Origin: a virus | IMG/VR virus record: IMGVR_UViG_3300046816_000434 | Length of the DNA: 64,000 nt | Strand: one strand, 5' to 3' | Part shown: positions 1-64,000 of the stretch, one piece after another | Layout of the letters: each line of letters opens with the position of its first letter | How positions within the stretch are numbered: the stretch's first letter is position 1 | Position numbers and translations under genes: made by a program | Notes under the pieces: generated by a model | Database searches by the model: none | What the model was told of the DNA's origin: nothing | The model's input: only the letters and a program-made list of their open reading frames with translations

Positions 1-422
1 CACTGCTTCTGCTGCCCGATGCCCAGCCCAGCCATAGGCACCTCCACCGCGAACCCCCGGCACTTGAGCGCCGGAACCAGAAACTCGCGGTAGTCGCCCC
101 CGGCCAGGACGACCAGCCGTGCGCTTTCGGGAGCACAGTCGCGCAGGCAGCTTGCGGTGATGCGGCTCCAGGTCTGCCGCCGCACCCGGTCGTCCGGGTC
201 GGTCGGGTCGTCCTTCCTCCAGGTGAAGTCGTACGGCTCCACGATGCGGTCGGGGCGCATGATGCCATGCAGTGCGCTCAGGATGAACCAAGGGCGTCCG
301 GTGGCCTCGACGTAGGCTCTGGCCTTACTGAACCAGTCGGAGACGTACAGCATCCTGGCTGGCTGCGCTGTGGTCGCCTTCCCGGCGACGCAGGACACGA
401 GGAATACGCGGTTGTCTGCCAT
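1..422 (-). CDS. DUF6884-family protein, 3' end truncated by window edge
   Basis: Manual translation from ATG at 422: MADNRVFLVSCVAGKATTAQPARMLYVSDWFSKARAYVEATGRPWFILSALHGIMRPDRIVEPYD...LAGGDYREFL...VEVPMAGLGIGQQKQ. It matches the LVSCxxxK...LYxSxWFxKAR...WFILSAxHG...EPYD pattern. Absent from the ORF track. Confidence 0.75.
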   Translation of the reverse strand, partial: MADNRVFLVSCVAGKATTAQPARMLYVSDWFSKARAYVEATGRPWFILSALHGIMRPDRIVEPYDFTWRKDDPTDPDDRVRRQTWSRITASCLRDCAPESARLVVLAGGDYREFLVPALKCRGFAVEVPMAGLGIGQQKQ

Positions 423-425
423 AGG

Positions 426-674
426 CTAGAAGTTGTGCAGTTTGTGCTCAGGCCAGGACTCAGCGGCAGCGGCGTGAAGTTCTTCCGCCGTGGGTACGGC
501 GATGTTCAGCGTCTTCATGCGCTGGCGTAGCTTCTCAGCGTTCATCCGGTTGAGCGCACTAACCAGATTCTCATCCCAGCCTTCGGCGCGGAGATAGTAA
601 TACTTTGCGCCCTGGATGTAGTCAGAGCGGATCGACGCTGCCGATTCGGTGCTCTTCGTTGTCTGTCGTTTCAT
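426..674 (-). CDS. Hypothetical protein, 82 aa
   Basis: ATG preceded by GAGGAG Shine-Dalgarno; 3-nt gap to the next gene. Confidence 0.7.
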   Translation of the reverse strand: MKRQTTKSTESAASIRSDYIQGAKYYYLRAEGWDENLVSALNRMNAEKLRQRMKTLNIAVPTAEELHAAAAESWPEHKLHNF

Positions 675-736
675 GGTCTCCTCAGTGCCAGATTGACTGG
701 CAGACGGCGGTGCCTCCCGGCGTGGCCGTTTCGACC
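675..736 (-). ncRNA. Type II hammerhead ribozyme HH1
   Basis: Minus strand: GGUC-GAAA-CGGC..GCC-GGGA-GGC..GCCG-UC^UGCCAG-UCAAU-CUGGCA-CUGAGGA-GACC-AUG. Complete core (CUGANGA, GAAA, GUC cleavage triplet) and all three stems pair. Predicted cut between 703 and 702. Confidence 0.9.
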
Positions 737-739
737 TTG

Positions 740-949
740 TCAGGCAGCAGGCAGGTTTGCCGCCCAGTCAATCAGGCACAGCACAACCTTCAGCGCAACG
801 GCGATGAATGCCAGCCCAAAGCAAACGCCAACCGCGCCACAGATCCATTGCAGGATCAGCACCGCCAGAGGGCTAAAGCAGCATGCGACCAGCAGGAGGT
901 GGAAGGCGATAATTCCGGCCCATTCCAGGCGGTTCAGCTTATCGGGCAT
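740..949 (-). CDS. Small membrane protein, two predicted TM segments
   Basis: MPDKLNRLEWAGIIAFHLLLVACC...; hydrophobic and overlapping the upstream stop. Confidence 0.6.
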   Translation of the reverse strand: MPDKLNRLEWAGIIAFHLLLVACCFSPLAVLILQWICGAVGVCFGLAFIAVALKVVLCLIDWAANLPAA

Positions 950-1388
950 GGAACGCCTCCCGGATTGTGTGATTGATGTAGCCGTAGTTCCTGCGCTGGT
1001 CGTCCTGGTCCTGATACCCCTTACCCTGACATTGATGACAGACCCCGCCAAACTGCGGAGGCGCACCGTTGATGCAAGGCCCCCAGCGATACTCGCCAGA
1101 GCACTGGCAGTGGTCGCAGGCGCGGTACTGCAGGTCTGCAACCTCCCGCTTGTCATCGTCGCGCCCTACCGTCCTGACGGGCCAGCCGTTGCCCTGGAGC
1201 CGTGTCGCCGCAAGCTGCCGCGCTACCGCCTGGGCCTCAGCCAGCGTGCAGTGCAGGTACAACCTCCCGTCCGTGGTGAAGCCGTCCAGCACGCGGCGGT
1301 CTACCGTGCGCCAGACCTTGTGGGCGTTCGGGACGTGGACCGTCCAGCGCTGCATGTAGTCGTTCGTCTGTTCGTTCGTGTCGTTCAT
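939..1388 (-). CDS. Phage protein with C-terminal DnaJ-like CxxCxxxG zinc finger
   Basis: CDHCQCSG...CHQCQGKG motifs; ATG at 1388 after a purine-rich GAGAGA. Confidence 0.7.
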   Translation of the reverse strand: MNDTNEQTNDYMQRWTVHVPNAHKVWRTVDRRVLDGFTTDGRLYLHCTLAEAQAVARQLAATRLQGNGWPVRTVGRDDDKREVADLQYRACDHCQCSGEYRWGPCINGAPPQFGGVCHQCQGKGYQDQDDQRRNYGYINHTIREAFHAR

Positions 1389-1402
1389 GTTCAATCTCTC
1401 TA

Positions 1403-1461
1403 TGGCCTAGCTCATCAGCGTCACGCGGCCAGTCGTGACAGACGCCTTACGGCGTTTCGCT
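1403..1461 (-). ncRNA. Type II hammerhead ribozyme HH2 with pseudoknot
   Basis: Minus strand: AGC-GAAA-CGCC-GUAA-GGCG-UC^UGUCACG-ACUGGCCG-CGUGACG-CUGAUGA-GCU-A-GGCCA. Canonical CUGAUGA core; loop I UGGCC pairs with the 3' GGCCA. Predicted cut between 1441 and 1440. Confidence 0.92.
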
Positions 1462-2418
1462 TATCTGCACCAGTTGAGCCTGGATGAAAGCGCCGAACGG
1501 CTGCACGCTGTCGCCACGCTGGTAGGCTTCCTGGTAGTCGACAATCTCCTGCGGGGTGTCCGCCGTGATGCGGTCGACCTCGGCCTGCGCCAGGAGTCCG
1601 CCGTCCAGGATGAACTGGGTCATGGAGCCGGGGCGCTTCTTGCTGTCGCGGCCCCACAGTCCCTTCATCGCGGCAGTTTTGAACCGTGGCCGCGCTCGGG
1701 CCTCCAGGCGGACGATGCCGCGCAGTTGATCCGGTGCCAGTGCGGCGACTTCCTCCGGTTGCATGGCCGCGCAGAAGTAACACGAGGACTTGGGCGGAAC
1801 AGGCAGGCCAGCCAAGGCGATCTCCAGCTTGCAGCGGTCCCGGTTCCAGCCCCAGTCCTGCAGGGGATACCAGTACTCGTAATGCTCTTCCTCCACCTCG
1901 GCATTGCAGGCGTAGGTGCGAACCCGCTTCTGATCGGCGGAACTGTCGTCGTACCCGATGACCTTCAGCACCTTCTCTCCAGTCGCCCACCATTCCTTGG
2001 CTGGTGCCCACGCCTGGATGAACCGATGCTGGGGAGCGGCCTTCCATTTCTGGGAGCAGGACTTGAACTGGAAGCTAAAGCTGATCGACGGCAGCGTGCC
2101 GTTGGTCAGGCAGTTCTGCTCCAGGCTGTAGTACGGAGGCCAGTTCTTGAAGTTCTGGGGCACGTAGCGAACGACAGTGACCTCGGGCATGCCGTGGGCT
2201 ACCAGGAAGGCATTGATCGTCTCCAGGTAGGCGTAGGTTTCAGGGCGCTCCCCGCCAACGTCCGCGAACAGGATCAGATCCGGGACGATGCGGCGACGGG
2301 CAAACTCCACCAGCACTGCGGTAGAGTCAACGCCCATCCCGTAGGCGACGACCAGCGGCTGTCGCCGGGTGTAGGAACCGAACAGGTCCTCAGTGGTGAC
2401 GGTCTTCAGGGTACGCAT
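1447..2418 (-). CDS. Phosphoadenosine phosphosulfate reductase-like (PP-loop, adenine nucleotide alpha hydrolase) protein
   Basis: PP-loop variant AYGMGVDST, FADVGGERPETY, KSC, YPLQDWGW and PKSSCYFC Fe-S-type cysteines. Confidence 0.85.
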   Translation of the reverse strand: MRTLKTVTTEDLFGSYTRRQPLVVAYGMGVDSTAVLVEFARRRIVPDLILFADVGGERPETYAYLETINAFLVAHGMPEVTVVRYVPQNFKNWPPYYSLEQNCLTNGTLPSISFSFQFKSCSQKWKAAPQHRFIQAWAPAKEWWATGEKVLKVIGYDDSSADQKRVRTYACNAEVEEEHYEYWYPLQDWGWNRDRCKLEIALAGLPVPPKSSCYFCAAMQPEEVAALAPDQLRGIVRLEARARPRFKTAAMKGLWGRDSKKRPGSMTQFILDGGLLAQAEVDRITADTPQEIVDYQEAYQRGDSVQPFGAFIQAQLVQISETP

Positions 2419-39919: not shown

Positions 39920-41818
39920 ATGGGCGGCTATTACGTGCCTAACATCCAGCGGCCTGGTTTCGGCTATCAGCGCCGCAGCGAGGATGACGAAGACGAATTC
40001 GATGGCTCTGGCTTTGGTGATCCCGGCGACTGGGGCGGCAGTGCAGGCACGCCTGCGTCTGACGGGCCGGATGCATCGGGCGCGACCGGCGGCTATTCTC
40101 CGTTGGCTGCAAATTCGCCCGCGCAAGGCATGCAGAGCATGTCCGCTCCTGCTCCCGCCGTCCAGAATCCGGATTGGCTGAGCGGGATGGATTGGACGGG
40201 CTCTTCGCAACAAGACAACCCGCCGATACCGTACGCATCTCCCTCGCGCGGCGGGGCGGACACGGCGCCTACCGAAACGGAGGCGAATCTGTCCCGGCCG
40301 GCTGGACCGGAAGGCCGTTATCTTCCCGAGCCTCCCGAGCCGCAGGACGCTGAGACAACTCCCACCAGCACTGGCATACCCGGTATAGGCCAGCCGCCCA
40401 TGGGGAGGCCTTCCAAGGTTCCTCCGCCGGTCTCTTCCCACGCCGAACAGGAAAAGCTCAAACAGATGATCAAGGCGGGACCGAAGCGCAGCGTCCTGGG
40501 CACGATTCTGGCGGGAGCGGCGGGATTTGGCGCGGGCTACGTGAATGCGGCAAGCCGCACGCGGAACCCGGTTCCGGTTCCGCAACAGGCGATGCGCAAC
40601 CTGACCTGGCGTGCGCCCGGCGGCGGAGCGTGGGACACCAAGCTTGCGCGGCAGAAGGAGCTGGCGGAGCAGGAGCAAGGCGAGGAGAAGCGCGCACTGA
40701 GCGCACAGCAGATCCAGGCGCAGGCGGAGGAACGTCAGGCGCAGGCGAAGGAGATTGCGCAGCGCGGCGACTATCTGAGTCAGATCGCGAAGACGGGAGC
40801 TAAGGCGGAGGAGGACCGGCAGAAACAGCAGCAGTTGCAGCGCATCACTCAGATGGGTGGAAGAACGCCGCAGATCCGCTACTACCCGGCGGACAATCCT
40901 CCCGCCGAGGTGGCAAATTCCAGTGACTGGTATGTGAAGCCCGATCCTTACGATCCGCATTCTATGATTGCGGTGCGTCCTGATCCAGGCCAGAAGATCG
41001 ATGACGAGACGGCCGACCTTCTGGGCATTGCGCGTGGTTCTACTGTCTCTCCGTCTACTCTTAATGCGGCAACGCGAGCGAAGATATCGGCGGTGAACGC
41101 GGCTCAAGCCTCTTCCGACAGGGAACTGGAGAGGTTGCGCAGGGAAGCGGCCGACAAGAACACGGTCAGGCATCAGACCGAAATGGAAGGCATAGCCGCC
41201 GGGGGTGCAGCGGATCGGACGGAGGCGAGGGAGCAGCGGCGTACGGATGCGCAGAACAAGGCGCTGCAGGGCGCGGAAGACTCAAAAAAGAACTTACTGA
41301 TTGGGGCAGAGAGATGGGGTGACAACGAGCGCAATAAGGTGCGAACGTCGTTGGGTTACATTTCTGACGCTGAAGAGGCGCGCATCAAGAAGGCAGTGCT
41401 CGCGCAAAAGCAGGCTGCATATAACAGCTACGCAGCAGCCAGCCGGCAATATGGCGGCGCAGCGTATGATGTGAAGCTCGATGAAAACGGCGATCCGATC
41501 CCGATCACGGAAGGGTATCTGAAGGGGCAGAAGCCGACTTACCTTCCTGGCGAAACCGCACCGACACCGACGGCACCAGCCGCTACTCCCGCTCGCGCGC
41601 CCACGGGCGGCGGCAGAGGCGGACGCGGAAACGTGCCGCCTCCAGTGAACACGAGCGCGCAGACGCAGGTTCCGCCTGCTGAAAAGGCCCCTCCCACAGC
41701 GCCGCAGGGCGAAGGGGTGACCGTCCCCATTCCCAACAATCCAAGCAAAAGTATGCACTTTGCCAGCAGGGAAGCGGCCGTGAAGTTCTTTAAAGACCGT
41801 GGCTACGATCTCAAATAA
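39920..41818 (+). CDS. Internal virion/DNA ejection protein, putative
   Basis: AAGGAGG SD; Gly-rich amphipathic segment LGTILAGAAGFGAGYV followed by long coiled coils. Confidence 0.7.
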   Translation: MGGYYVPNIQRPGFGYQRRSEDDEDEFDGSGFGDPGDWGGSAGTPASDGPDASGATGGYSPLAANSPAQGMQSMSAPAPAVQNPDWLSGMDWTGSSQQDNPPIPYASPSRGGADTAPTETEANLSRPAGPEGRYLPEPPEPQDAETTPTSTGIPGIGQPPMGRPSKVPPPVSSHAEQEKLKQMIKAGPKRSVLGTILAGAAGFGAGYVNAASRTRNPVPVPQQAMRNLTWRAPGGGAWDTKLARQKELAEQEQGEEKRALSAQQIQAQAEERQAQAKEIAQRGDYLSQIAKTGAKAEEDRQKQQQLQRITQMGGRTPQIRYYPADNPPAEVANSSDWYVKPDPYDPHSMIAVRPDPGQKIDDETADLLGIARGSTVSPSTLNAATRAKISAVNAAQASSDRELERLRREAADKNTVRHQTEMEGIAAGGAADRTEAREQRRTDAQNKALQGAEDSKKNLLIGAERWGDNERNKVRTSLGYISDAEEARIKKAVLAQKQAAYNSYAAASRQYGGAAYDVKLDENGDPIPITEGYLKGQKPTYLPGETAPTPTAPAATPARAPTGGGRGGRGNVPPPVNTSAQTQVPPAEKAPPTAPQGEGVTVPIPNNPSKSMHFASREAAVKFFKDRGYDLK

Positions 41819-44800
41819 TGCCCGACGTTCTTGAACCTGAAGTAGCCGATCCTACTACCGACCCCGATACAATCGACTGGGAGCAGGAAGCCAAACAGGC
41901 TGGTGCGGCTGTTATCCCGACACCCCAACCCCCTAAGCCGCCGGTTGATGATTGGGAGGCGGAAGCGAAGAGTGCCGGGATAAGCGTCACCCCGACGCCC
42001 AAGCGTCAGGCGCAGCCTGCGCAACCCGCGCGCGCTATCGACTGGGAAGCGGAAGCCAAACAGGCGGGAGCGACCATCCAGGATAATGTTTACGCCGGTC
42101 CCCAGATTGGCTTTGAGATCCCTCCGCACCAGTTAGATCTGGGCCGCAGGATACCGGCGGGCCTGGCTCCTCAGGCTCCTGCTACGCCTGCACCCGCTGT
42201 TCCGCCGCCGGTTGCCGTTCCACAACCGACCGTCTACGGCGGGCCGCAGCTTGGTCCGATCACGCCGCCGCCTGCGCCAGCACAAATCACGCCTGTTCCG
42301 CTTGAGCCTGGCCTTCAACGCCCGGCGCCTGCTCCTCAGTTGCCAACGGGTGCCGGCGGTATTGCGCAGGCGGTCAGCAATGTGATGGGCGAGTCGCCGC
42401 GCCTGGATGTGCAGGCAGCTCGCGCCTACGGCCTGCTAACTTCGCCAGGCCAATTCATTGAGCGGCCGGCGAATGACGTGCCAACGGCGGATCACATCGT
42501 GTATGCGATTCGCCAGATGGCGGCGAACCAGGCTTCGCCCGTAGAAGTCGGCAAGATGCTGGCGTTCGGCTTGGGCGGCAAAGGAATCGGTCTCCTGCAG
42601 AAGGGACTCGCTAATTCCGGAATGCTGGCTTCGCTACCTGGCTTGAGCAAGGCGCTTGACGTTGCTTCGCGCGCCGCGATCCCTGGCTATATCGTTGGCA
42701 GCGGTAGCAAGAATGTCTATGAGCAGGCGCAGGCAGCTCAAGCAGCGAAGGAGCGCGGAGATACCGGCGCCGAGGTGGAAGCGCGGACGCAGGAAGTGGT
42801 CAGTGCGTTGATGGCGTTGGCGGGTGCGTATGGCGTCCGCCAGGCCTGGCAGGTCAAGGGCGCGTATCCGCCTTCTCCGACCGCCGCCGAGAAGGCGACA
42901 GCCGAGAAGATAGGCGGCATTGCTACTCCCAAGGTCTCATCCGAAGCCGCAGGCGCGATTGCAGAGCGGCTGCGCCAGCAGGGTGCTCCATTGGCGGCGC
43001 AGGCATGGGAGCAGCTCGACCGTAGCCGTCCGGTTGAGCTGAATATTGGGGGCAGGAAGGCCTACCTCACGGATACCTGGACCGGAGGGCGTCCGGGCGT
43101 GGGGAACATGATCCAGTATGTCTTCGATGAAGACGGCGATGTACTGACGGGCGGTTCGCCGGATGCCGTGAAGGGCTGGCTCGATCAGCAGACCAGCACA
43201 CGGCGAGGCATGCGATCCGGTACTGCTGCTGCCGGTGTTCCGGGCGTTACTTATGAGCCCGCGTTAGAACAGGGCGAGGCACTCACTGGGACCAGGCCGG
43301 CTCCTCCTGGGACTGGCGCGTCCATCCCCCCACGGGTTGGTTCTCAGGTTCCAGGAGAAGGAGTGCCGCCTGGCGAAGGCGGCGGGGCACCTTCCGGTCC
43401 TGACGTTCCCGACGTTCCCGACGTTCCTGGCACATCCGTAGTCCCTCCGTCCGTTGGCGTTCCGTCCATGGACCCGCAGTTGCGTGACCAACTGCATGAG
43501 ATGAGCGCGGAAGACATTGCGCGGTACAACAGTCCAGACATCAACACGATGTTGCGCATGCTGGGCCTTCCCCTGACCGGCAATAAGCTGGACCGTGCCA
43601 CGGCCATCAAGGAAGCAATCGCCAGGCAGCAGGCTGGTGAAGTGGCACCAGCGTCCGTAGGGGCGGAGCCGGAAGGCCCTCCCGAGCCGAAAGCGGAAGT
43701 CACTTCCGGCGGGCCGCAGGCGCCTGAGGAGGATGTCAGTGGTGGCCGCAATGCGGTGACACTCGATCCCGCCAAGATGGACGAGGAGACGTTCGATCAA
43801 TACGTGCGTCTTCGCGAGCTGCTTAAGAACGCCGGCAACCTGGGCTTTGAGAGAATCGGAGATGCGGTCAAAGCCATTCTGACGCACCAGGACTGGGCAA
43901 CCCGCTGGGACGTGGGAGGGGGACCCGATGGCGCGGAGCTAATCCGGCTGGGCAACAAGTTTGGCGGCTGGCAAGAGCAATTGCCTGCGCCTGCCCAGAA
44001 CGCGCTGCCTCCGCCGGTTGGTACAATAGGCCCCTATGGGCGACCCGTCAGATCTGAGGAACCAGAAGGAAAGGTGGGAGAAGCAGCAGCGGCTCCGGAG
44101 GAATCTCGACCGCTGGGCGGGGTTGGTGGAGGGGAAAGCTGGCGACAAACCAGCATCATCATCCCCGGAGCCGACGAAGAGCTTGGAGCCCAATACAGAC
44201 TTGCCGAGTTAAAGGACGTATTCCCCTCCCACCATCCCTTCAGCCTTCAGGCGCAGCCCGAACACCCGTGGGGCAATGAGCGCAATTACAACACGCCGGA
44301 AGGCAGGGCGCGTCTCTATAAGCAGGCGACCAGATTCAAGCACCGCCTGATGGTCACCGACAACGCGGACAACGTCAACGGTCCGTCCGTGGTCGCGCGC
44401 AATCCCGCGAATCCCAACGATCCGAGGCTCTACGTGCTGGGCGGCAACAGCCGCATCATGACCATCCACCGCGTGGCGGCGGACCACCCGGAGGCGTACC
44501 GCGCCTACGTGCAGTACCTCGCGGACCGCGCGCCGTTGTACGGCTACACGCGCGAGCAGGTGCTGGGCATGGAGAACCCGGTTCTGGTGCGCGAGCTGGA
44601 TCAGACCGAGATTCCAAAGTACCGCCAGATCATCAGCGACCTGAACAAGACCGGGACCGCCGCGCTCGATCCGTTTGAGCAGGCGATCAGCGATTCGCAG
44701 CGCGTCAGCCAGGACACGCTCGACCACATCCACTACGCCATCGAGAAGCTGGGGTCGAAGGGCACGCTCGCCAAGGCCCTTGAGGGCGCCCTGGGTCCTG

Positions 44801-47800
44801 AGATCGTGCAGAACCTGGTTAAAGACGGATTGATCACCGAAAGCGGGCGTCCTGCTTATCTGGACCCACGGTCGCAGAAGGTGACCGCAGAGGGCAAGGC
44901 GCGCATCTTGCGTCTCATGCTGGGGCGCTTCTTTGACTCTGTGCCGCAGATGTTGAGCACCAACCCGATCTACCAGGCTCGCCTGGAACGCATGGCGGCG
45001 CCACTGGTGCGCCTGGAGGGCAGGCCCGACTGGGATGTCCTGAACGCGCCGATCCGCGAGGCGCTGGAAATCCTGTACCAGTCGGAGATCCGGGACATGC
45101 CGGTCCTGGAGGATCTGAACGCACAGGAAGACATGTATGAGGGGAGCAAGTACAGCCCGGAGGGCATTGCCTGGGCGTACGTTCTCCGGAGCAATGGTGC
45201 CGACCGGCTGGGCACCGCAGCCAGGCAGTATCTGGAGATGGAGGCCCCGTCGCGTCCCGGCCAGGACGTGGACATGTTCGCGCCGCCGCCGGTAGACCAG
45301 GCGGAGGCCTTCGCCAAGGCATTCGGTGACCTGAGAACAGGCAAGGGCAAGGGGACCGTAAGCAAGGAGTATCCAAAGCTGGGCGAGCCAGTGGCGCAGC
45401 CCGGAGAGCTGCAATCGCTCAGGCGGCGCGGTCACGGAACGGGAGAGCTGGGGTTTGATCAACCCGCCCGGACCGGGGGAGCAGATAGGCAGGAGTCGTT
45501 CTTTAGCTCAGAGGATGAAGCCGCGTCCCAGGCCCTTGAGGAATCGCGCCAAAAGAAGCTTCTGGGCGAGCGCCTCACTGCGCAGTTTCACTCCGGACAG
45601 GCGGTGCGGCCGGCCGGCCTGAAGCCCGCACAACAGCGTGGCATGTTTGAGGAGGAGGGGCCGGAACAGGGAGGGCTTGACCTTTCTGAAGCGGCGCCCA
45701 CGTCTTCGTATTCGGCCCAGTTCCCTCCATCGCCAGCGCAGAAGGCACCAGAGAAGCGCGGCGCTGCATCCCAGCGCAACATGCGTATCGCGGACCTGGA
45801 ACGCCAGGCGACTCAGATGCGCCTCACGCCTGAGGAGCAGGACGAGCTGACAAACCTGCGGCGGGAGCGGGCGACGCGCATGGCTGAGCGCCGCACCCAG
45901 TTTGAACGGGGACAGGCTCCGCTGTTTGCGGAACAGATCCCGGAGGCTAAGCCAGAGGACTTCATTCGTGCTGATGAAGAAAGGGAGCGGAGCAGGCGGG
46001 AGAGCGACCAGGGCAGCGAGCAAAAGGCGCGCAACTACCGGGAAGCCATTGCCGGGGCCGTGTCGCCGGAACGGCTGGATGAGCTGGACAGAGGGTGGGA
46101 AAGCTTCAAGGGGCCGCATAAACCTGCGTATCACGCGGACTACTGGCTGCAGCACTACCGTGATGTCTTTAAGCGCAACCCGATGGACGTGTACCGTGGA
46201 GGTGAGCCGTGGCCTCTACCTAAGACTGAAGGGGAGGAGCGGGCAAAGCAGGCTGGCCTGACCGAAGAGGAGTACCTGGAGCTGAAGGCTCCGCATGAGG
46301 GCGAGGGAGAGGTACAGGCGCTGCGCCGTGTGCCGCCCGACCAGCTTCCGCCTGTCAGGCGCGGCCTGAACGACGTGCAGGAGATCCTGCATGACCAGGT
46401 GCGGAAGAAGATCAAGGCGGATGCGCCCGATGCGCTTCAGCAACACCGCCTGGTTACGGAGTCGCGCAAGGAAGTCCAGGAGCAGCTCGCTAAGCCTGTG
46501 AGTGGCATTGGCTGGTATGACGCCGATACGCCGCTCGCCAATACCGATCTGACCAAAGCCTTTCCTGAGCTGAAGACGAATCCCGAAAAGCTGGTCCTGC
46601 TCAACGCCATGTCGGCGGTGACCTCTTCCAGCCATGAGGCGGAACGGGAGTCGGAGCAGGCCGCGTACATCTACGAGCAGTACCGCAAGACGGGGCGCAT
46701 CCCGCTTTCCCGTACAAAGGGCACCAAGTGGGTGGGGCAGGGCGCGGCCGTTGGGCTCGATAAGCTGAACCGTCTGTTGCGGCATTTCGGCGGTAAGACT
46801 CCCTTTGCCGGCGAGAAGAAGCTGGCGGATTTCCTCACCACCAAGCAGACTGCAGACAGCATCCGTGCGCTGGGCCGCAAGCTGGGCTATACGGACGGGA
46901 CCATCCGCTCCTGGCTGGAGAAGCGCGACGAGATGCTGGGGGCTGCGGTCCTGGGCGAGAAGATGTCCCGCTATTTCGCGGGCATCATGGGCCTGGACAT
47001 GGACGGGTCGACCGTCGATGTCTGGATGGCGCGCGCGGGTTACCGCCAGCTTGGGCGCCTAGTGAAGGAAGGCGAGCCCAAGGGTCCGGAGGCGCCGCGT
47101 TCGCCGCGCGACCGCCAGCTCTTCATGAAGACGGATGAAACCCTGGCGAAGGAGTTTAGGCTACCTACGCGCGACATCCAGGCGGTACGCTGGTTCTACG
47201 AGAAAGAGCTGTACCGCAGCCTGGGGTTTAACACCGCCGATGGCTGGCGGTCGCACGGTACGCTAAAATACCTGGAAGACAATGGCATTGCAACAGCGTA
47301 CACCCGCAATCGACGTCGCCGAATTGATCTCAGCGCTGCAGAGAATGCAGCTCAAAGCGAAGGCGGAGGGGCGCGACCCGACACTTCGGCAACTCCTGGA
47401 CGAGGCGCACGAGCAACTGCGCAAGGACCAGGCGAAGAGGAAGTAAGCGCCCGGCGTAGACCTACCGGACCGGGCGAGGGGCAGTTCTCGCTTCCCTTCG
47501 ACCAGCCTCACGAGACGGCCATCGAGGACCTGCAGGAAGCGGCTGGCCGTCCGCACATCATCAGCATCGATCCCAATGCTATCCGCCGCCTGACAGACCC
47601 GCCGCGACCGGCTGTTGCAAGTCAGCAGGCGAGCGAGCAGTTCTTTAAGGGGGCCGACTCCTACGTCACCAAGGTGGGCGATGTTCCGGCTGTGTTCATG
47701 AACCAGCCGATGATGGACATTCTGCTGCATGCCAAAGGTACTTGGGCGGTTGACAAGAATGGCTCTCATGTTGGCGGGCTGGCGGTTCCGCCCTCCCAGT

Positions 47801-50800
47801 GGAAAGCCGTTTTACGTACGGAGCTAGCGAGCTGGGCTCGCACCGAGAACGGGACGGCCAACATTTCCGATCCCGCCATCTTAAAGCTTGCCGGTCAGAT
47901 CCGTCAGGCGCTGGGGCTTCCCAGCCTGCAGGACCAGTTACAGAGCGTGGGTGCGCGCGCGATGACGGGGCATGCCGCTTTGCGGCAGATCCAGAGCGAG
48001 TGGGACTCGCCGCGTTTCAATCGTCAGATCATTGTGGCCCAGGTGGGCGACAGCCTTGCGCCGGCCGAAATCAAATCGTTGATCGAGGAAGAATACGACC
48101 ACATCCAGCACTTTGGTTTGCCTGGCGGCATGGCCGCGCTGCCGATTCACATCACCGAAAATTCGCCAGTGGCACGCAAGGCGGTCCAGCACCTGGCGCA
48201 ACTTGGGTATCCCGACCTGCTTGCGCCCGGTGATCCGGGGCGCATGGCGAGCAACGCCATCATGACCAGCGAGGTCATCGTGCGCCTGATGCGCCCTGAG
48301 CGGTGGCAGGAATTGGGCATCTCCCGGCGCGAGGCGCGGGAGCTGGCGCTGCACTACATCACGGGGCTGGCATCGCTGGGTCAGCACGCGGATGTTATCA
48401 TTGAGCAGTTAAACCATGCCCTCCCCAATCAAACCCAAGCACACCTCCCGGCAGGAAGCGAAACCGGCCTTCGACCGTTTGAAGGAGCTGGTGAAATTGG
48501 CGCAAGAGGACCCCCAGGCGCTAGAGAGGGAGATGGACAAGATGTTTCAGACCCCGAAATCCAAGCCCTAGCGCCGGTCCGCAGGGCAGCGGAACGCGCG
48601 GCGACAGCAGCGAAGACCACCAAAGCCGGCCGCGCGCTGGGTATCGGTCCTACCGTTGAGCGCCAGGTTATCCCCTTCATCGACAACCTGGAAAAGGCTA
48701 TCGATCAGATCCTCTACACGGTCAGTCCCAGCAGCCGTGGCCCTTATGCCGAGAAGGCCGCGCTGTCCATGCGCGCGGATGCGGCGCATATGGACCGTGT
48801 AATCAAGCAGGCGAGCACTGCGCTGGAGGAGCTGCGCAAGCCCTTGGGCAAGCTCTCTCAGGCGCAGCAGCGGCGATTCATCATTCGCTCCGAATCCAAC
48901 CGCCCGCAGGTGGATGCCACCCTGCCCAACGGCGAAGTGATTCCGGCGGCGGAGATGAACCGCATCGCGGCCGAATTCAAGAAGGTCAACGACTACATCC
49001 GCGCCGAGGTGGAAGACGCGGACGGCCCGGCGACCCAGCGTATCTGGCGCGAAGTGTATTTCCCGAATTTCTGGAAGGAGACGTCGAACGTCAGGCCAGG
49101 CACTACCGGCATGCCGTCTGGTTTGGGGAAGGCGCCGTTTGCCGGCCCGCGAGGCTTTGAGAAGCGGAAGGTCTTTGATACTTTTGTCGATGGTCTCCGC
49201 GCAGGCTACACGCCGCTCTTTGATAACCCCGTCGACTTCTGGCAGGCCAAGACGCGGGAGATGGCGAAGTTCGCCATGTTCACCCGGCTGAAGGCCGACA
49301 TCGAGCCGCTCGCCAAATTCAAAGGCTTCACTGAGAAGATGCCGGATGGCTACGACAAGGTCAACGACCCCTTCGCCCGAGTCCTGCAGTACAGCAAAAC
49401 CGAAAAGGGATTCATCGCGCGCGGCGACTGGGTGTATCCGCGAGAGGCCGCAAGAATTATCAACAACTACCTGTCGCCCGACCCGAGGCAGACCATGCCG
49501 GTCTGGAAGCTGATCACCGACATCGGCAATCTGTGGCTGCGCTGGAAACTGAGCGGCTTTTATCACTTCGGCGCGACCGCGCTCAACGGCATCTATTCCC
49601 ATGCGGCACTCGCTGCGCGCATGGCTGCGGCCGGCGATATGAAGGGCGCGGCCGAGCATTTAGTGAAAGCTTCGGTCTCTCCGGTTGCGGATGCGATTCG
49701 TGGAGGCCGTCTCAAGCGCGAATTCTTAGACATCAACGGCACGCAGACCGCTGCGTTCCAGGCGCTGGAGGAAGGCGGATTCCGCGCGGGGCAGGACCCG
49801 TTTTTCCAAAGCAACATGCGCCAGCGCGTGAAGGAAATGTGGAAAGCAGGCGAGAGGATCACGCCGATTTTGGCAAGCCCCTTCGCGGCCATTGAGTGGA
49901 TCACCGTGCCCCTGATGGAGCATTACGTCCCGGCGATGAAAATGGCGGCGGCGCACGACCTGGCGCGGTTTGAGCTGGAGCAATACCAGAAGCGCAACGC
50001 GGGGATGATGCCTAACCCGCCGCGCATGCGCAAGATCATGTCCGACGCGGTCGACAGCATCGACAATCGTTTTGGGCAGTTGACCTATTCCAATATCTTC
50101 TGGAACGCCGCGCTGAAAGCCGCCCTGATGAGTGTGATCATGAGCGTGGGCTGGAACCTGGGAACCGTGCGCGAGCTGGGCGGCGGCATCAAGGATATTG
50201 TGAGTGCGGTAGCCAAGGGCGGCGGCGGCATGACCAACCGCATCGCGTATCTTGCCGCGCTGATTGCCCTGCACACGATAGGCGCCGCGATCTACCAGAA
50301 GCTGGCAACCGGGAAGAACCCTTCTTCCGCGAAGGACGTGGTCTACCCTCAGGACGGCGGCGTCGATGAACGCGGCCATCCCACGCGCGTCTCCTTCCCC
50401 GACTACATGAAGGAGCTGTGGAACTGGACTAACGATCCGGTGGGGTCCGCTGTCAACAAGACACACCCCATGCTCAGCTTCCTGCTGAAGTACATCCAGA
50501 ACCGCGACTACTGGGGCAGCAAGATTCACAACCCGGAGGATGACTGGCGCGACCAGCTCAAACAGTTTGGGAGCTACGCCCTGCGTGAGGAGCTGGCGCC
50601 GCTCTCTGTCAGCAATCTGCTGAAGATGAAACAGCGCCAAGGCGAAGACTGGGGCAAGATGCTCACCGAGCAGCCCGGCAAGTCGGTTATGTCGCAGGTG
50701 GGCTTCTCTCCGACTCCCGCCTGGATCGGGCTCACCGATGCCGAGAAGCTGCTCGCGGGATACCAGCGCGAGCGTCAGCCAGTCGGTGGCCGTGACGTGG

Positions 50801-51213
50801 AAGAGGCGCAGCGGACAACAGCGCGTGCCGCGATTACACGCGCGATCCGCCTGGGGCAGGACTCGCAGCCGGCTGTCGAGAACGCGCTGCGTCAGGGACT
50901 GATCACCGGCAAGGACCTGGCGAGACTGCATAAGGCGGCGGCGGTCAGCCCTCTGCAGGCCGGGCTGAATCACGACATGCTGAACCCTGGCGAGGTTCTG
51001 CGCATCTGGGAAGCGGCGAACCCGGATGAGCGCAGGCAGATCCAGGGCCTGGTGAAGCTGCGCCTGGCGCGCATGGCACACAAGCCCAACGTGCACTGGG
51101 AAGACTGGTCGCGTGAGGCGGCGGAGAAGTATTTCGGCATCCAGGCACGGCCGCGTCTCGCGATCCCTCCTGGCTATGGTGTCCTGCCCCCGGCAGTCGG
51201 CGCCAGTCAGTAA
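41818..51213 (+). CDS. Large polyvalent virion protein, 3131 aa
   Basis: N-terminal DWExEAKxAG repeats, SAP-like motif, ddrB-like ParB domain, helical glycosylase-like region and LPD38-like C-terminus. Confidence 0.85.
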   Translation: MPDVLEPEVADPTTDPDTIDWEQEAKQAGAAVIPTPQPPKPPVDDWEAEAKSAGISVTPTPKRQAQPAQPARAIDWEAEAKQAGATIQDNVYAGPQIGFEIPPHQLDLGRRIPAGLAPQAPATPAPAVPPPVAVPQPTVYGGPQLGPITPPPAPAQITPVPLEPGLQRPAPAPQLPTGAGGIAQAVSNVMGESPRLDVQAARAYGLLTSPGQFIERPANDVPTADHIVYAIRQMAANQASPVEVGKMLAFGLGGKGIGLLQKGLANSGMLASLPGLSKALDVASRAAIPGYIVGSGSKNVYEQAQAAQAAKERGDTGAEVEARTQEVVSALMALAGAYGVRQAWQVKGAYPPSPTAAEKATAEKIGGIATPKVSSEAAGAIAERLRQQGAPLAAQAWEQLDRSRPVELNIGGRKAYLTDTWTGGRPGVGNMIQYVFDEDGDVLTGGSPDAVKGWLDQQTSTRRGMRSGTAAAGVPGVTYEPALEQGEALTGTRPAPPGTGASIPPRVGSQVPGEGVPPGEGGGAPSGPDVPDVPDVPGTSVVPPSVGVPSMDPQLRDQLHEMSAEDIARYNSPDINTMLRMLGLPLTGNKLDRATAIKEAIARQQAGEVAPASVGAEPEGPPEPKAEVTSGGPQAPEEDVSGGRNAVTLDPAKMDEETFDQYVRLRELLKNAGNLGFERIGDAVKAILTHQDWATRWDVGGGPDGAELIRLGNKFGGWQEQLPAPAQNALPPPVGTIGPYGRPVRSEEPEGKVGEAAAAPEESRPLGGVGGGESWRQTSIIIPGADEELGAQYRLAELKDVFPSHHPFSLQAQPEHPWGNERNYNTPEGRARLYKQATRFKHRLMVTDNADNVNGPSVVARNPANPNDPRLYVLGGNSRIMTIHRVAADHPEAYRAYVQYLADRAPLYGYTREQVLGMENPVLVRELDQTEIPKYRQIISDLNKTGTAALDPFEQAISDSQRVSQDTLDHIHYAIEKLGSKGTLAKALEGALGPEIVQNLVKDGLITESGRPAYLDPRSQKVTAEGKARILRLMLGRFFDSVPQMLSTNPIYQARLERMAAPLVRLEGRPDWDVLNAPIREALEILYQSEIRDMPVLEDLNAQEDMYEGSKYSPEGIAWAYVLRSNGADRLGTAARQYLEMEAPSRPGQDVDMFAPPPVDQAEAFAKAFGDLRTGKGKGTVSKEYPKLGEPVAQPGELQSLRRRGHGTGELGFDQPARTGGADRQESFFSSEDEAASQALEESRQKKLLGERLTAQFHSGQAVRPAGLKPAQQRGMFEEEGPEQGGLDLSEAAPTSSYSAQFPPSPAQKAPEKRGAASQRNMRIADLERQATQMRLTPEEQDELTNLRRERATRMAERRTQFERGQAPLFAEQIPEAKPEDFIRADEERERSRRESDQGSEQKARNYREAIAGAVSPERLDELDRGWESFKGPHKPAYHADYWLQHYRDVFKRNPMDVYRGGEPWPLPKTEGEERAKQAGLTEEEYLELKAPHEGEGEVQALRRVPPDQLPPVRRGLNDVQEILHDQVRKKIKADAPDALQQHRLVTESRKEVQEQLAKPVSGIGWYDADTPLANTDLTKAFPELKTNPEKLVLLNAMSAVTSSSHEAERESEQAAYIYEQYRKTGRIPLSRTKGTKWVGQGAAVGLDKLNRLLRHFGGKTPFAGEKKLADFLTTKQTADSIRALGRKLGYTDGTIRSWLEKRDEMLGAAVLGEKMSRYFAGIMGLDMDGSTVDVWMARAGYRQLGRLVKEGEPKGPEAPRSPRDRQLFMKTDETLAKEFRLPTRDIQAVRWFYEKELYRSLGFNTADGWRSHGTLKYLEDNGIATAYTRNRRRRIDLSAAENAAQSEGGGARPDTSATPGRGARATAQGPGEEEVSARRRPTGPGEGQFSLPFDQPHETAIEDLQEAAGRPHIISIDPNAIRRLTDPPRPAVASQQASEQFFKGADSYVTKVGDVPAVFMNQPMMDILLHAKGTWAVDKNGSHVGGLAVPPSQWKAVLRTELASWARTENGTANISDPAILKLAGQIRQALGLPSLQDQLQSVGARAMTGHAALRQIQSEWDSPRFNRQIIVAQVGDSLAPAEIKSLIEEEYDHIQHFGLPGGMAALPIHITENSPVARKAVQHLAQLGYPDLLAPGDPGRMASNAIMTSEVIVRLMRPERWQELGISRREARELALHYITGLASLGQHADVIIEQLNHALPNQTQAHLPAGSETGLRPFEGAGEIGARGPPGAREGDGQDVSDPEIQALAPVRRAAERAATAAKTTKAGRALGIGPTVERQVIPFIDNLEKAIDQILYTVSPSSRGPYAEKAALSMRADAAHMDRVIKQASTALEELRKPLGKLSQAQQRRFIIRSESNRPQVDATLPNGEVIPAAEMNRIAAEFKKVNDYIRAEVEDADGPATQRIWREVYFPNFWKETSNVRPGTTGMPSGLGKAPFAGPRGFEKRKVFDTFVDGLRAGYTPLFDNPVDFWQAKTREMAKFAMFTRLKADIEPLAKFKGFTEKMPDGYDKVNDPFARVLQYSKTEKGFIARGDWVYPREAARIINNYLSPDPRQTMPVWKLITDIGNLWLRWKLSGFYHFGATALNGIYSHAALAARMAAAGDMKGAAEHLVKASVSPVADAIRGGRLKREFLDINGTQTAAFQALEEGGFRAGQDPFFQSNMRQRVKEMWKAGERITPILASPFAAIEWITVPLMEHYVPAMKMAAAHDLARFELEQYQKRNAGMMPNPPRMRKIMSDAVDSIDNRFGQLTYSNIFWNAALKAALMSVIMSVGWNLGTVRELGGGIKDIVSAVAKGGGGMTNRIAYLAALIALHTIGAAIYQKLATGKNPSSAKDVVYPQDGGVDERGHPTRVSFPDYMKELWNWTNDPVGSAVNKTHPMLSFLLKYIQNRDYWGSKIHNPEDDWRDQLKQFGSYALREELAPLSVSNLLKMKQRQGEDWGKMLTEQPGKSVMSQVGFSPTPAWIGLTDAEKLLAGYQRERQPVGGRDVEEAQRTTARAAITRAIRLGQDSQPAVENALRQGLITGKDLARLHKAAAVSPLQAGLNHDMLNPGEVLRIWEAANPDERRQIQGLVKLRLARMAHKPNVHWEDWSREAAEKYFGIQARPRLAIPPGYGVLPPAVGASQ

Positions 51214-62884: not shown

Positions 62885-63063
62885 TTCGTCGTCCCTTTCG
62901 CCTTCTCCAGCGCAGCATAGCTCTCGGGCGTGCCTTGCTCGTAGTAATCCACCAGTGCGTTGCACCGCCTACAGATCGCCAGCGTACCCAGGCGCGGGTG
63001 TTCGCGCCTGAGTGTACCAGCCCGTGTGCATTTCAGAAACCACTGGCACTTCGGGTTCTTCAT
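62881..63063 (-). CDS. Small zinc-finger phage protein
   Basis: CQWFLKC...HP.LG...ICRRC. Confidence 0.7.
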   Translation of the reverse strand: MKNPKCQWFLKCTRAGTLRREHPRLGTLAICRRCNALVDYYEQGTPESYAALEKAKGTTK

Positions 63064-63069
63064 ATCGGC

Positions 63070-63528
63070 TTAGTCCTCCTCCGGAAGCATTACGGTGATG
63101 ACGGGTTCGCCCTTGTCGCCGGGGCCACAGACCGCCTTGAGCGTGACCAGCCGGGACTCTGCGCCCATGATGTAGATGCAGCGAAAGCGCATCGTGTTCT
63201 CGCCCACAGGCGCGGCCTTGATCGCGCGGCGCAGGCATTGCAGCGTGTCCCACAGCCTGCCGTCAATCGACTGCCCATGACCCATGTCGCCGGGGTCGAT
63301 GAAGCCATCCCAGACCGTGCGGGTGAAGGCAACCGGGAAGGTGAAGCCTGCCTCCCGCCCCAGCTTGCCAGCGTCCACCAGGACGCCATCCGCTAGCGCC
63401 TGGGCGCGGGTATACCGGAACACCTCCGCGCCGTCCCAGAAGCTCTGGCTGGGCGTGCGCGGCTGTGCTGGCCGTTCCTTCTCAAACAGTGGGCCGTAGC
63501 CCTTGGTTGGTTGTTCGTTGTTGCTCAT
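63070..63528 (-). CDS. DUF6573-family protein
   Basis: YTRAQALADGVLVD...AGF.FPVA.T..VW...GRLWD...LKAVCGPGD.GEPVITVMLPEED. Confidence 0.85.
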   Translation of the reverse strand: MSNNEQPTKGYGPLFEKERPAQPRTPSQSFWDGAEVFRYTRAQALADGVLVDAGKLGREAGFTFPVAFTRTVWDGFIDPGDMGHGQSIDGRLWDTLQCLRRAIKAAPVGENTMRFRCIYIMGAESRLVTLKAVCGPGDKGEPVITVMLPEED

Positions 63529-63536
63529 AAGCTCCT

Positions 63537-63755
63537 TTACTTGGTTTCGGTGATGGTGAAGGTGTGCGGGTCGGTGTCGCCATCGGCCTGCTCCCAGACG
63601 TGAAGCTGGATGCTCTCGGTTGCTCTGTTGTATTCAAACACCCCGGCCTGCTGTCCATTCAGGAGCAGCAGAAAGCCGGGATAGTCCGGGTCGTAATGCT
63701 GCATCACGGTCAGTTTGCCGATGGGCGTAGTCACGTTCAGTTCGCTGTTGCTCAT
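63537..63755 (-). CDS. Hypothetical protein
   Basis: ATG preceded by GAGGAG inside hammerhead HH3. Confidence 0.7.
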   Translation of the reverse strand: MSNSELNVTTPIGKLTVMQHYDPDYPGFLLLLNGQQAGVFEYNRATESIQLHVWEQADGDTDPHTFTITETK

Positions 63756-63807
63756 GGTCTCCTCAGTGCCGGAATTCACCGGACAGACGCCTCGCGGCGT
63801 TTCGACC
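63756..63807 (-). ncRNA. Type II hammerhead ribozyme HH3
   Basis: Minus strand: GGUC-GAAA-CGCC-GCGA-GGCG-UC^UG(U)CCGG-UGAAUU-CCGGCA-CUGAGGA-GACC-AUG. Predicted cut between 63786 and 63785. Confidence 0.88.
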
Positions 63808-63810
63808 TAC

Positions 63811-64000
63811 CTAAACGAGATCCACTCCGATAGTTGCCAGCACCTCCGCTGCCTGCTCGTAGATCCCGTAGGATTCGCCGTCGTTGCAGCCGTCCTCGCA
63901 GATGCCGTCGAAGTCCTCCATGCGTCCGTGCGGGTCGTTGGTGATCACGTTGCGACCATCACAGAAAGGGCAGCGCGCCCCGCACAGAATGGCGCTGGCT
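63811..64000 (-). CDS. Cys-rich protein, 5' end outside window
   Basis: Manual translation ...LCGARCPFCDGRNVITNDPHGRMEDFDGICEDGCNDGESYGIYEQAAEVLATIGVDLV*. Confidence 0.6.
   Translation of the reverse strand, partial: ASAILCGARCPFCDGRNVITNDPHGRMEDFDGICEDGCNDGESYGIYEQAAEVLATIGVDLV

Follow-up and report, generated by a model that had tools for sequence, protein, structure and literature searches.

Three type II hammerhead motifs at gene junctions of an uncultured soil phage and their possible role in transcript processing

Introduction

What do several self-cleaving ribozymes, set between consecutive genes of a single phage, do to the transcript that contains them? The role of bacterial and phage hammerheads has been a question since 2011, when Perreault et al. 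(PMC3088659) reported that multiple hammerheads in prophages frequently lie on either side of a single gene or a short block of genes and proposed that long phage transcripts are processed in this manner into operon- or gene-length mRNAs. Cleavage of clustered prophage hammerheads was demonstrated in vitro at three loci and, for a triple arrangement from Agrobacterium, in E. coli (PMC3088659). A review of 2019 still calls the processing role a suggestion, and for no bacterial or phage hammerhead has a benefit of cutting been proven (PMC6765202). Both the clustered arrangement and its explanation by processing have been in the literature since the work of Perreault et al. in 2011, and the locus described here is one more clean example rather than a new kind. 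Peripheral contacts bear on activity in this class: in most type II hammerheads, though not in all, loop I forms a pseudoknot of 4 bp or more with the nucleotides immediately 3' of stem II, a type II ribozyme deprived of it loses more than 100-fold in speed, and many hammerheads lack known contacts (PMC3088659).

The locus lies in a stretch of 64,000 nucleotides (IMG/VR record IMGVR_UViG_3300046816_000434), which at its full length is referred to below as the window. An earlier note, made from the letters of this window alone, had described three complete type II hammerheads on the minus strand at the gene junctions of one early operon, and had supposed that they serially cut a polycistronic transcript. 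Our analysis follows up the motifs themselves, the junctions that they occupy, their relatives in other genomes and the ways in which they might act.

Results

The window contains three complete type II hammerhead motifs, HH1, HH2 and HH3, all on the minus strand (Table 1). On this point the sequence agrees with a structural scan, that is, a script demanding the core and three helices, and the elements described before (CUGANGA, GAAA, a GUC triplet and a GNRA-capped stem III) are found in each copy. The core strand C3-U4-G5-A6-N7-G8-A9 is present in all three, as CUGAGGA in HH1 and HH3 and as CUGAUGA in HH2, and so are G12-A13-A14 followed by the A15.1-U16.1 pair and the N-U-H triplet (GAAA ... 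GUC). According to the scan, the core is surrounded by a stem II of 3-4 bp, a stem III of 5 bp and a stem I of 4-7 bp; the topology is that of type II in every copy, with loops capping stems I and III and with stem II open, and an unpaired A on either side of stem II is common to all of them.

HH1 reads, in order, GGUC, GAAA, stem III, GUC, stem I, CUGAGGA and GACC. Its stem II is formed by GGUC and GACC (736-733 with 678-675) and is followed by GAAA at 732-729; stem III consists of a CGGC/GCCG helix and an inner GCC/GGC helix with a 3x3 internal loop and a GGGA cap; the GUC triplet (705-703) sets C17 at 703 and the predicted cut at 703/702; and a stem I of 6 bp with the loop UCAAU (702-686) leads to CUGAGGA at 685-679. 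The same plan recurs in HH3 (stem II GGUC/GACC, 63807-63804 with 63759-63756; CUGAGGA at 63766-63760; C17 at 63786, predicted cut at 63786/63785), with a stem III of 5 bp (CGCC/GGCG) closed by a GCGA loop and a stem I unlike that of HH1. HH2 spans 1461-1409, with a tail reaching 1401, and is built from an AGC/GCU stem II (1461-1459 with 1411-1409), GAAA at 1458-1455, a stem III of 5 bp with a GUAA loop (1455-1442), C17 at 1441 with the predicted cut at 1441/1440, a stem I of 7 bp (1440-1419) and the core CUGAUGA at 1418-1412. It also has a pseudoknot of 5 bp, in which UGGCC of loop I (1431-1427) pairs with GGCCA (1407-1403), one base past stem II.

Table 1. Hammerhead motifs and adjoining genes, in coordinates of the window
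Feature	Coordinates	Strand	Description	Evidence or position
HH1	675..736	minus	type II hammerhead of the subclass that very probably carries a ribosome-binding site	structural scan, MFE fold, covariance model R1
HH2	1401..1462	minus	classical type II hammerhead	Rfam RF02276, structural scan, sequence
HH3	63756..63807	minus	second copy of the HH1 subclass	structural scan, MFE fold, covariance model R1
PAPS-reductase-like protein, 323 aa	1447..2418	minus	weak PF01507 match; relatives at 41-51% identity	upstream of HH2
149-aa protein	939..1388	minus	CxxC motifs; no family match	first gene of the 738-nt HH2-HH1 segment
69-aa protein	740..949	minus	hydrophobic	second gene of the HH2-HH1 segment; TGA 3 nt before HH1
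82-aa gene	426..674	minus		directly after HH1; ATG 674 abuts stem II
DUF6884 gene	3..422	minus	PF21818, E 6.5e-38	leaves the window and continues in contig L050
90-aa gene, 3' part	63811..64000	minus	gene calls on contigs L049 and L050	upstream of HH3
72-aa gene	63537..63755	minus	L049 gene 386-604 (HH3 = L049 334-385)	directly after HH3

The structural scan returned exactly 3 matches in the window and 0 in 200 Markov-randomised windows, whereas a loose pattern of the core only, with 4 matches against 1.9 expected, is by itself not significant; type I and type III hammerheads were searched for within the window and none was found. MFE folding yields a three-way junction for HH1 and HH3, with a z of -2.05 for HH1. 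The Rfam model RF02276 (Hammerhead_II), whose gathering threshold of 37 bits is a curated score and not a biological feature, gives 36.4 bits to HH2 (E 3.8e-5 in 2.5 kb, 9.7e-4 over the whole window), 20.6 bits to HH1 and 16.1 bits to HH3. At the gathering threshold Rfam therefore has zero matches in the whole window, and when the whole window is searched at an E-value threshold HH2 alone falls below E = 1, with no twister, pistol, hatchet or other ribozyme. The Rfam type II search that the earlier note had proposed as a check hence speaks for HH2, which comes near the cut-off, but carries no copy over it.

HH1 and HH3 share an exact pattern, GGUCGAAAC ... GUC ... CUGAGGAGACC, which leaves stems I and III outside. 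This pattern occurs in 33 copies in 29 IMG/VR stretches, and stems I and III pair in every one of them. Across the 31 unique copies, standard pairs make up 97.4% of cells (29-44% in slid controls), compensatory double changes are seen in 10 of the 12 variable pairs, and none of 500 shuffles reaches the observed pairing values. The claim that stems I and III vary and yet keep pairing, drawn before from the copies of one genome, can thus be extended to the whole family, where the covariation, as read from the compared sequences, shows that the hammerhead fold is under selection.

A covariance model of the HH1/HH3 subclass, R1, scores HH1 at 61.2 bits and HH3 at 51.1 bits, both within the true group, and found extra copies not forced by the pattern, in which stem II itself covaries (GGAC/GUCC, GAGC/GCUC, GAUC/GAUC) and the variable core position holds any base. 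Serial copies are common elsewhere as well: seven are packed into 5.6 kb at one locus (L028), all of them at gene junctions, three occur at another (L027) and two at each of several more. In representative bacterial genomes the pattern is present in 26 stretches, 20 of which do not fold and score at most 35.5 bits with R1; the other six fold, score 56-69 bits with R1 and all belong to Acidobacteriota assemblies. About 25 related copies in 13 loci all fall short of the RF02276 gathering score; the Rfam threshold misses the HH1/HH3 subclass, so that phage annotations under-count such ribozymes. Loop I of the subclass is conserved as U-N-A-N-G/U. A search for a pseudoknot found complementarity of loop I with either flank to equal the permuted background, HH1 and HH3 included, and fast cleavage at the Mg2+ concentrations of the cell is therefore not assured for this subclass.

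All neighbouring ORFs in the ORF list lie on the minus strand, and the motifs sit at their junctions. HH1 begins 3 nt past the TGA (742-740) of the 69-aa gene and ends immediately 5' of ATG 674 of the 82-aa gene, whose product had no match in an exact-protein look-up; HH3 begins 3 nt past the TAG (63813-63811) of the 90-aa gene and ends immediately 5' of ATG 63755 of the 72-aa gene, a start that an independent gene call, on contig L049, likewise sets immediately after stem II of HH3. HH2 overlaps the final five codons of the PAPS-reductase-like gene, the TAA of which (1449-1447) is within the stem III loop, and the next ATG (1388) follows 20 nt past its stem II. The described placement at stop/start junctions is accordingly confirmed, with HH1 and HH3 abutting the ATG and HH2 overlapping the stop.

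By window coordinates HH3 is 62 kb away from HH1 and HH2. A JGI metagenome contig, L050, reads as window 344..1, then 949 nt, then window 64000..63043, at 100% identity; since it bridges the two ends of the window over 949 nt, the genome unit is about 64,949 bp, circular or permuted, and after closure all three hammerheads fall within 2.7 kb. Their order on the minus strand is HH2, 738 nt with 2 genes, HH1, 1866 nt with five genes (82 aa, DUF6884, 156 aa, 93 aa and 90 aa) and HH3, and they are part of a co-oriented block of about 26 kb made of small non-structural genes. Phage marks are a terminase large subunit, tail and tail-fibre proteins and Sipho_Gp157, most other genes being without family, and the sequence also turns up in four DNA runs from soil or rhizosphere, across which the ribozymes are invariant, the search for runs having listed none of RNA; the source is an uncultured soil phage. 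No terminator-like site was found in L050, which has one promoter-like site, TTGCAA-17-TATACT (L050 395-423), between HH1 and HH3. Single transcription of the block is plausible on these grounds, and the position of the promoter-like site also means that the three ribozymes need not share one transcript. As to the one operon proposed before, the co-oriented block speaks for it, only because the genome closes via L050, and the internal promoter-like site speaks against it; the attribute "early" is suggested by gene content and orientation only.

Retention of the ribozymes at the same junctions of related phages, which the earlier note had put forward as a check, is not borne out by the distant relatives that were found. 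The PAPS-reductase-like gene has 19 IMG/VR relatives (Table 1), with 0 type II hammerheads; the DUF6573 gene has one distant locus and the 149-aa gene one partial metagenome relative, and the hammerhead is absent from both; the search for relatives of the DUF6884 gene gave none, and the phage collection holds no close relative of the window.

The abutment of HH1 and HH3 on start codons is a property of the subclass. An ATG stands 0-7 nt past GACC in 26 of its 31 unique copies (about 12% expected) and 1-4 nt past GACC in all six folded copies from bacterial assemblies, unlike in most of the 20 non-folding matches. Related copies with a base other than G at the variable core position number eight, six of which have a separate GGAG-type site and a start 9-16 nt past stem II, and at neighbouring genes of the phage GGAG-type sites precede the start by 4-11 nt. 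In HH1 and HH3 the GGAG is 3 nt from the ATG, a spacing at the short extreme, and HH2 has no embedded ribosome site. Taken together, the placement of the ATG, the separate GGAG in the copies without G and the GGAG usage of the neighbours indicate that the core and the stem II strand of the subclass (GAGGAG-ACC) very probably serve as a Shine-Dalgarno sequence. In the literature that we covered, which is not the whole of it, no paper was found on a natural hammerhead whose core is a ribosome site.

Discussion

The reading that we prefer, and that we hold to be probable though well short of assured, is that the three motifs are genuine type II hammerheads which cut polycistronic phage mRNA at gene junctions. 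As RNA polymerase passes a junction, the motif would fold and cut 3' of C17, at 1441/1440, 703/702 and 63786/63785. Hammerhead cleavage 3' of C17 leaves a 2',3'-cyclic phosphate on the upstream product and a 5'-OH on the downstream one. Because the type II layout caps stems III and I, the cut would be flanked by two hairpins: the upstream mRNA would end one base past the GNRA-capped hairpin of stem III, and the downstream mRNA would start with the hairpin of stem I and a 5'-OH. The products would be joined by the 3-4 bp of stem II only and should hence separate, which at HH1 and HH3 would free the ribosome site. The resulting pieces would be a two-gene mRNA of 738 nt (HH2-HH1), a five-gene mRNA of 1866 nt (HH1-HH3) and the flanking parts, each with its own stability and translation, and the net effect would likely be an uncoupling of neighbouring cistrons in both respects. 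Translation may in turn act on the ribozymes, in that a ribosome terminating on the upstream gene would occupy stems II and III or unwind them; since the stop codon at HH2 is within loop III, the folding of HH2 would have to wait for ribosome release.

Cleavage in vivo, co-transcription and the effects on stability and translation are what we infer from this anatomy. For the serial cutting of a polycistronic transcript that the earlier note had supposed speak the anatomy of the junctions, the placement on the sense strand and the selection for the fold, whereas the lack of a pseudoknot in HH1 and HH3 and the promoter-like site between them speak against it. The processing interpretation is a reasonable one, partly supported by the features of the sequence, and it is not new.

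The sole part of this locus that might be new is the subclass with the embedded ribosome site. We put forward, as a tentative proposal whose odds are lower than those of transcript cutting itself, that HH1 and HH3 stand for a widespread type II subclass of their own, missed by Rfam (stem II GGUC/GACC, G at the variable core position, no pseudoknot, loop I U-N-A-N-G/U), in which the next gene would have no ribosome-binding site other than the 3' strand of the ribozyme, and self-cleavage would unmask that site and so license translation. If true, soil phages would possess a compact cassette of stop, ribozyme, ribosome site and start, a natural counterpart of engineered ribozyme switches that sequester the Shine-Dalgarno sequence, and bacterial hammerheads would gain a testable function.

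One may go further and regard cleavage-licensed translation as the main function, at least of HH1 and HH3, a view that overlaps with transcript processing without excluding it and that we consider rather unlikely. The ribosome-binding site (G5-A9 plus the GACC of stem II) would be sequestered by the catalytic core and by pairing to GGUC, and the cut would free it as GGUC leaves with the upstream product. The distances from GACC to the ATG, far more often short than expected in the unique copies and short in all six folded bacterial ones, fit this view, as do the separate GGAG-type sites in six of the eight copies with another core base and the GGAG-type sites at neighbouring phage genes, and engineered hammerhead switches that sequester a Shine-Dalgarno sequence do work in bacteria (PMC5052635). 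The mask is, however, just 4 bp, which ribosomes could open without a cut, the gap of 3 nt between GGAG and ATG in HH1 and HH3 is short, and HH2 has no embedded site at all.

The remaining explanations dispense with a function in processing or add a further step to it. The motifs could be inherited or horizontally spread junction cassettes of little or no benefit to the phage, and slow or even inactive as ribozymes. The varying identities of the flanking genes, the absence of the motifs from relatives of those genes and the lack of a recognisable tertiary contact in HH1 and HH3 would all be expected of such cassettes; we nevertheless judge them improbable, as all cores are perfect, the stems covary strongly, loop I is conserved as U-N-A-N-G/U and the exact placement between stop and start recurs in many unrelated contigs. 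Less probable still, and indeed very unlikely, is that pairs of ribozymes excise RNA that is then circularised, for which the candidate would be the 1866-nt fragment between HH1 and HH3: it would begin with the 3' half of HH1 and end in the 5' half of HH3, and these halves, the stem II strands of HH1 and HH3 being identical (GGUC/GACC), could rebuild one hammerhead that would bring the ends of the fragment together for ligation. Those ends, a 5'-OH and a cyclic phosphate, would suit the reverse reaction or RtcB-type ligases, which counts in favour of circularisation. Perreault et al. 2011, however, saw neither circular nor spliced products when they looked for them in clustered hammerheads (PMC3088659). 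For the HH2-HH1 fragment the sequence itself discards a circular RNA made through a rebuilt hammerhead, as its chimeric stem II would set GCU against GGUC, which do not pair. That the motifs are chance look-alikes or ordinary hairpins, finally, can be regarded as effectively refuted: the three Rfam scores under the gathering score and the loose core pattern, found 4 times against 1.9 expected, could be cited for it, but not a single structured match arose in the 200 randomised windows, covariation is strong throughout the family, and with R1 the true copies (51-70 bits) are set clearly apart from pattern-only matches (at most 35.5).

Transcript cutting at gene junctions, which we continue to prefer, finds a convenient test case in this locus, where a classical copy with a pseudoknot stands beside two copies whose core appears to double as a ribosome site, and where the cut sites are precisely predicted. 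A G12A dead mutant would leave the ribosome site intact, G12 lying outside the ribosome-binding site of HH1, and would be useful to that end.

Among known systems, the closest in arrangement are the clustered prophage hammerheads, such as the A. tumefaciens triple around ardA: there as here several copies lie close together on one strand and flank genes, and the same role is proposed, the cutting of long phage transcripts to gene length. Those hammerheads have been shown to cleave, whereas the present ones are known from the sequence of an uncultured soil phage and flank genes that differ from the ardA-type examples. For HHphage of the haloviruses HF1 and HF2, a transcript 5' end has been mapped no more than 3 nt from the cut (PMC3088659), but this core variant, which requires high Mg2+ or salt, is present as a single copy in viruses of an archaeal host. 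When compared with RF02276, all three motifs share its core and topology and HH2 matches it end to end, pseudoknot tail included, whereas HH1 and HH3 depart from it by their fixed stem II of 4 bp (GGUC/GACC), the G in the core, the missing pseudoknot and the U-N-A-N-G/U loop I. The resemblance extends to synthetic biology, where RiboJ is an engineered ribozyme insulator. In engineered insulators and switches a self-cleaving ribozyme is set directly 5' of the ribosome-binding site and yields a hairpin leader with a 5'-OH, and in the switches (cited in PMC5052635) the ribosome site forms part of a ribozyme helix, as it appears to do here. The engineered parts are synthetic, built on type III or type I scaffolds and with the site in an extended stem I, whereas the present ribozymes are natural, of type II, and would hold the site in the core and stem II; the likeness is hence one of the way of working and not of family membership.

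Genome closure and a promoter-like site

The two ends of the window (1-344 and 63043-64000) are linked through 949 nt of L050, an independent JGI metagenome contig that matches both of them, and the genome unit therefore amounts to about 64,949 bp, either circular or permuted, of which some 1.5% is missing from the window. At its end, the structural block carries a single ORF of 3131 aa. L050 contains just one sigma-70-like promoter match, TTGCAA-17-TATACT, which falls beyond the window in the interval that separates HH1 from HH3, two of the type II hammerhead motifs of the window's minus strand; it is followed by a GC-rich hairpin, within a 52-nt gap downstream of the DUF6884 gene. This match may constitute an internal promoter, so that HH3 could be carried on a separate transcript of its own.

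Features of the window and of the compared loci
Feature	Sequence	Position	Strand	Content
Part absent from window	L050	345-1293		DUF6884 gene end, 156-aa gene, 93-aa gene, 90-aa gene start
Promoter-like match	L050	395-423
Large ORF	window	41818-51213	+
Hammerhead series	L028	5454-11029	-
Folded copies of HH1/HH3 pattern	L053, L063, L065, L067, L075, L078			Acidobacteriota assemblies

Distribution and genomic setting of the hammerheads

At its gathering threshold, the Rfam model for type II hammerheads (RF02276, 37 bits) reports none of the approximately 25 hammerheads in 13 loci (L020-L033), and the short, pseudoknot-free subclass to which HH1 and HH3 belong thus escapes standard annotation. 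Serial arrangement is evident in the IMG/VR contig 3300038441_000952 (L028), where seven type II hammerheads, each placed between two ORFs, occur within 5.6 kb and vary among themselves in both stem II sequence and variable core base; those copies that lack G at the variable position have a separate GGAG site farther downstream. In five unrelated contigs (L024, L038, L043, L047 and L048), the gene directly upstream of the hammerhead encodes a P-loop protein (GPPGTGKT) of about 430 aa, and in another four (L021, L030, L036 and L040) this position is taken by a family whose proteins have about 236 aa, which makes the junctions after these genes possible preferred sites for hammerheads.

Matches of the 23-base HH1/HH3 pattern in Brevibacterium (L056, L057, L059, L060, L068 and L074) proved to be conserved sequence with no hammerhead fold; these false positives served as a negative control. 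When representative bacterial genomes were searched with this pattern, all six properly folded copies fell within Acidobacteriota assemblies (Terriglobales, Acidobacteriaceae), a placement that hints weakly at which hosts this ribozyme subclass occurs in, and perhaps also at those of the soil phage itself.
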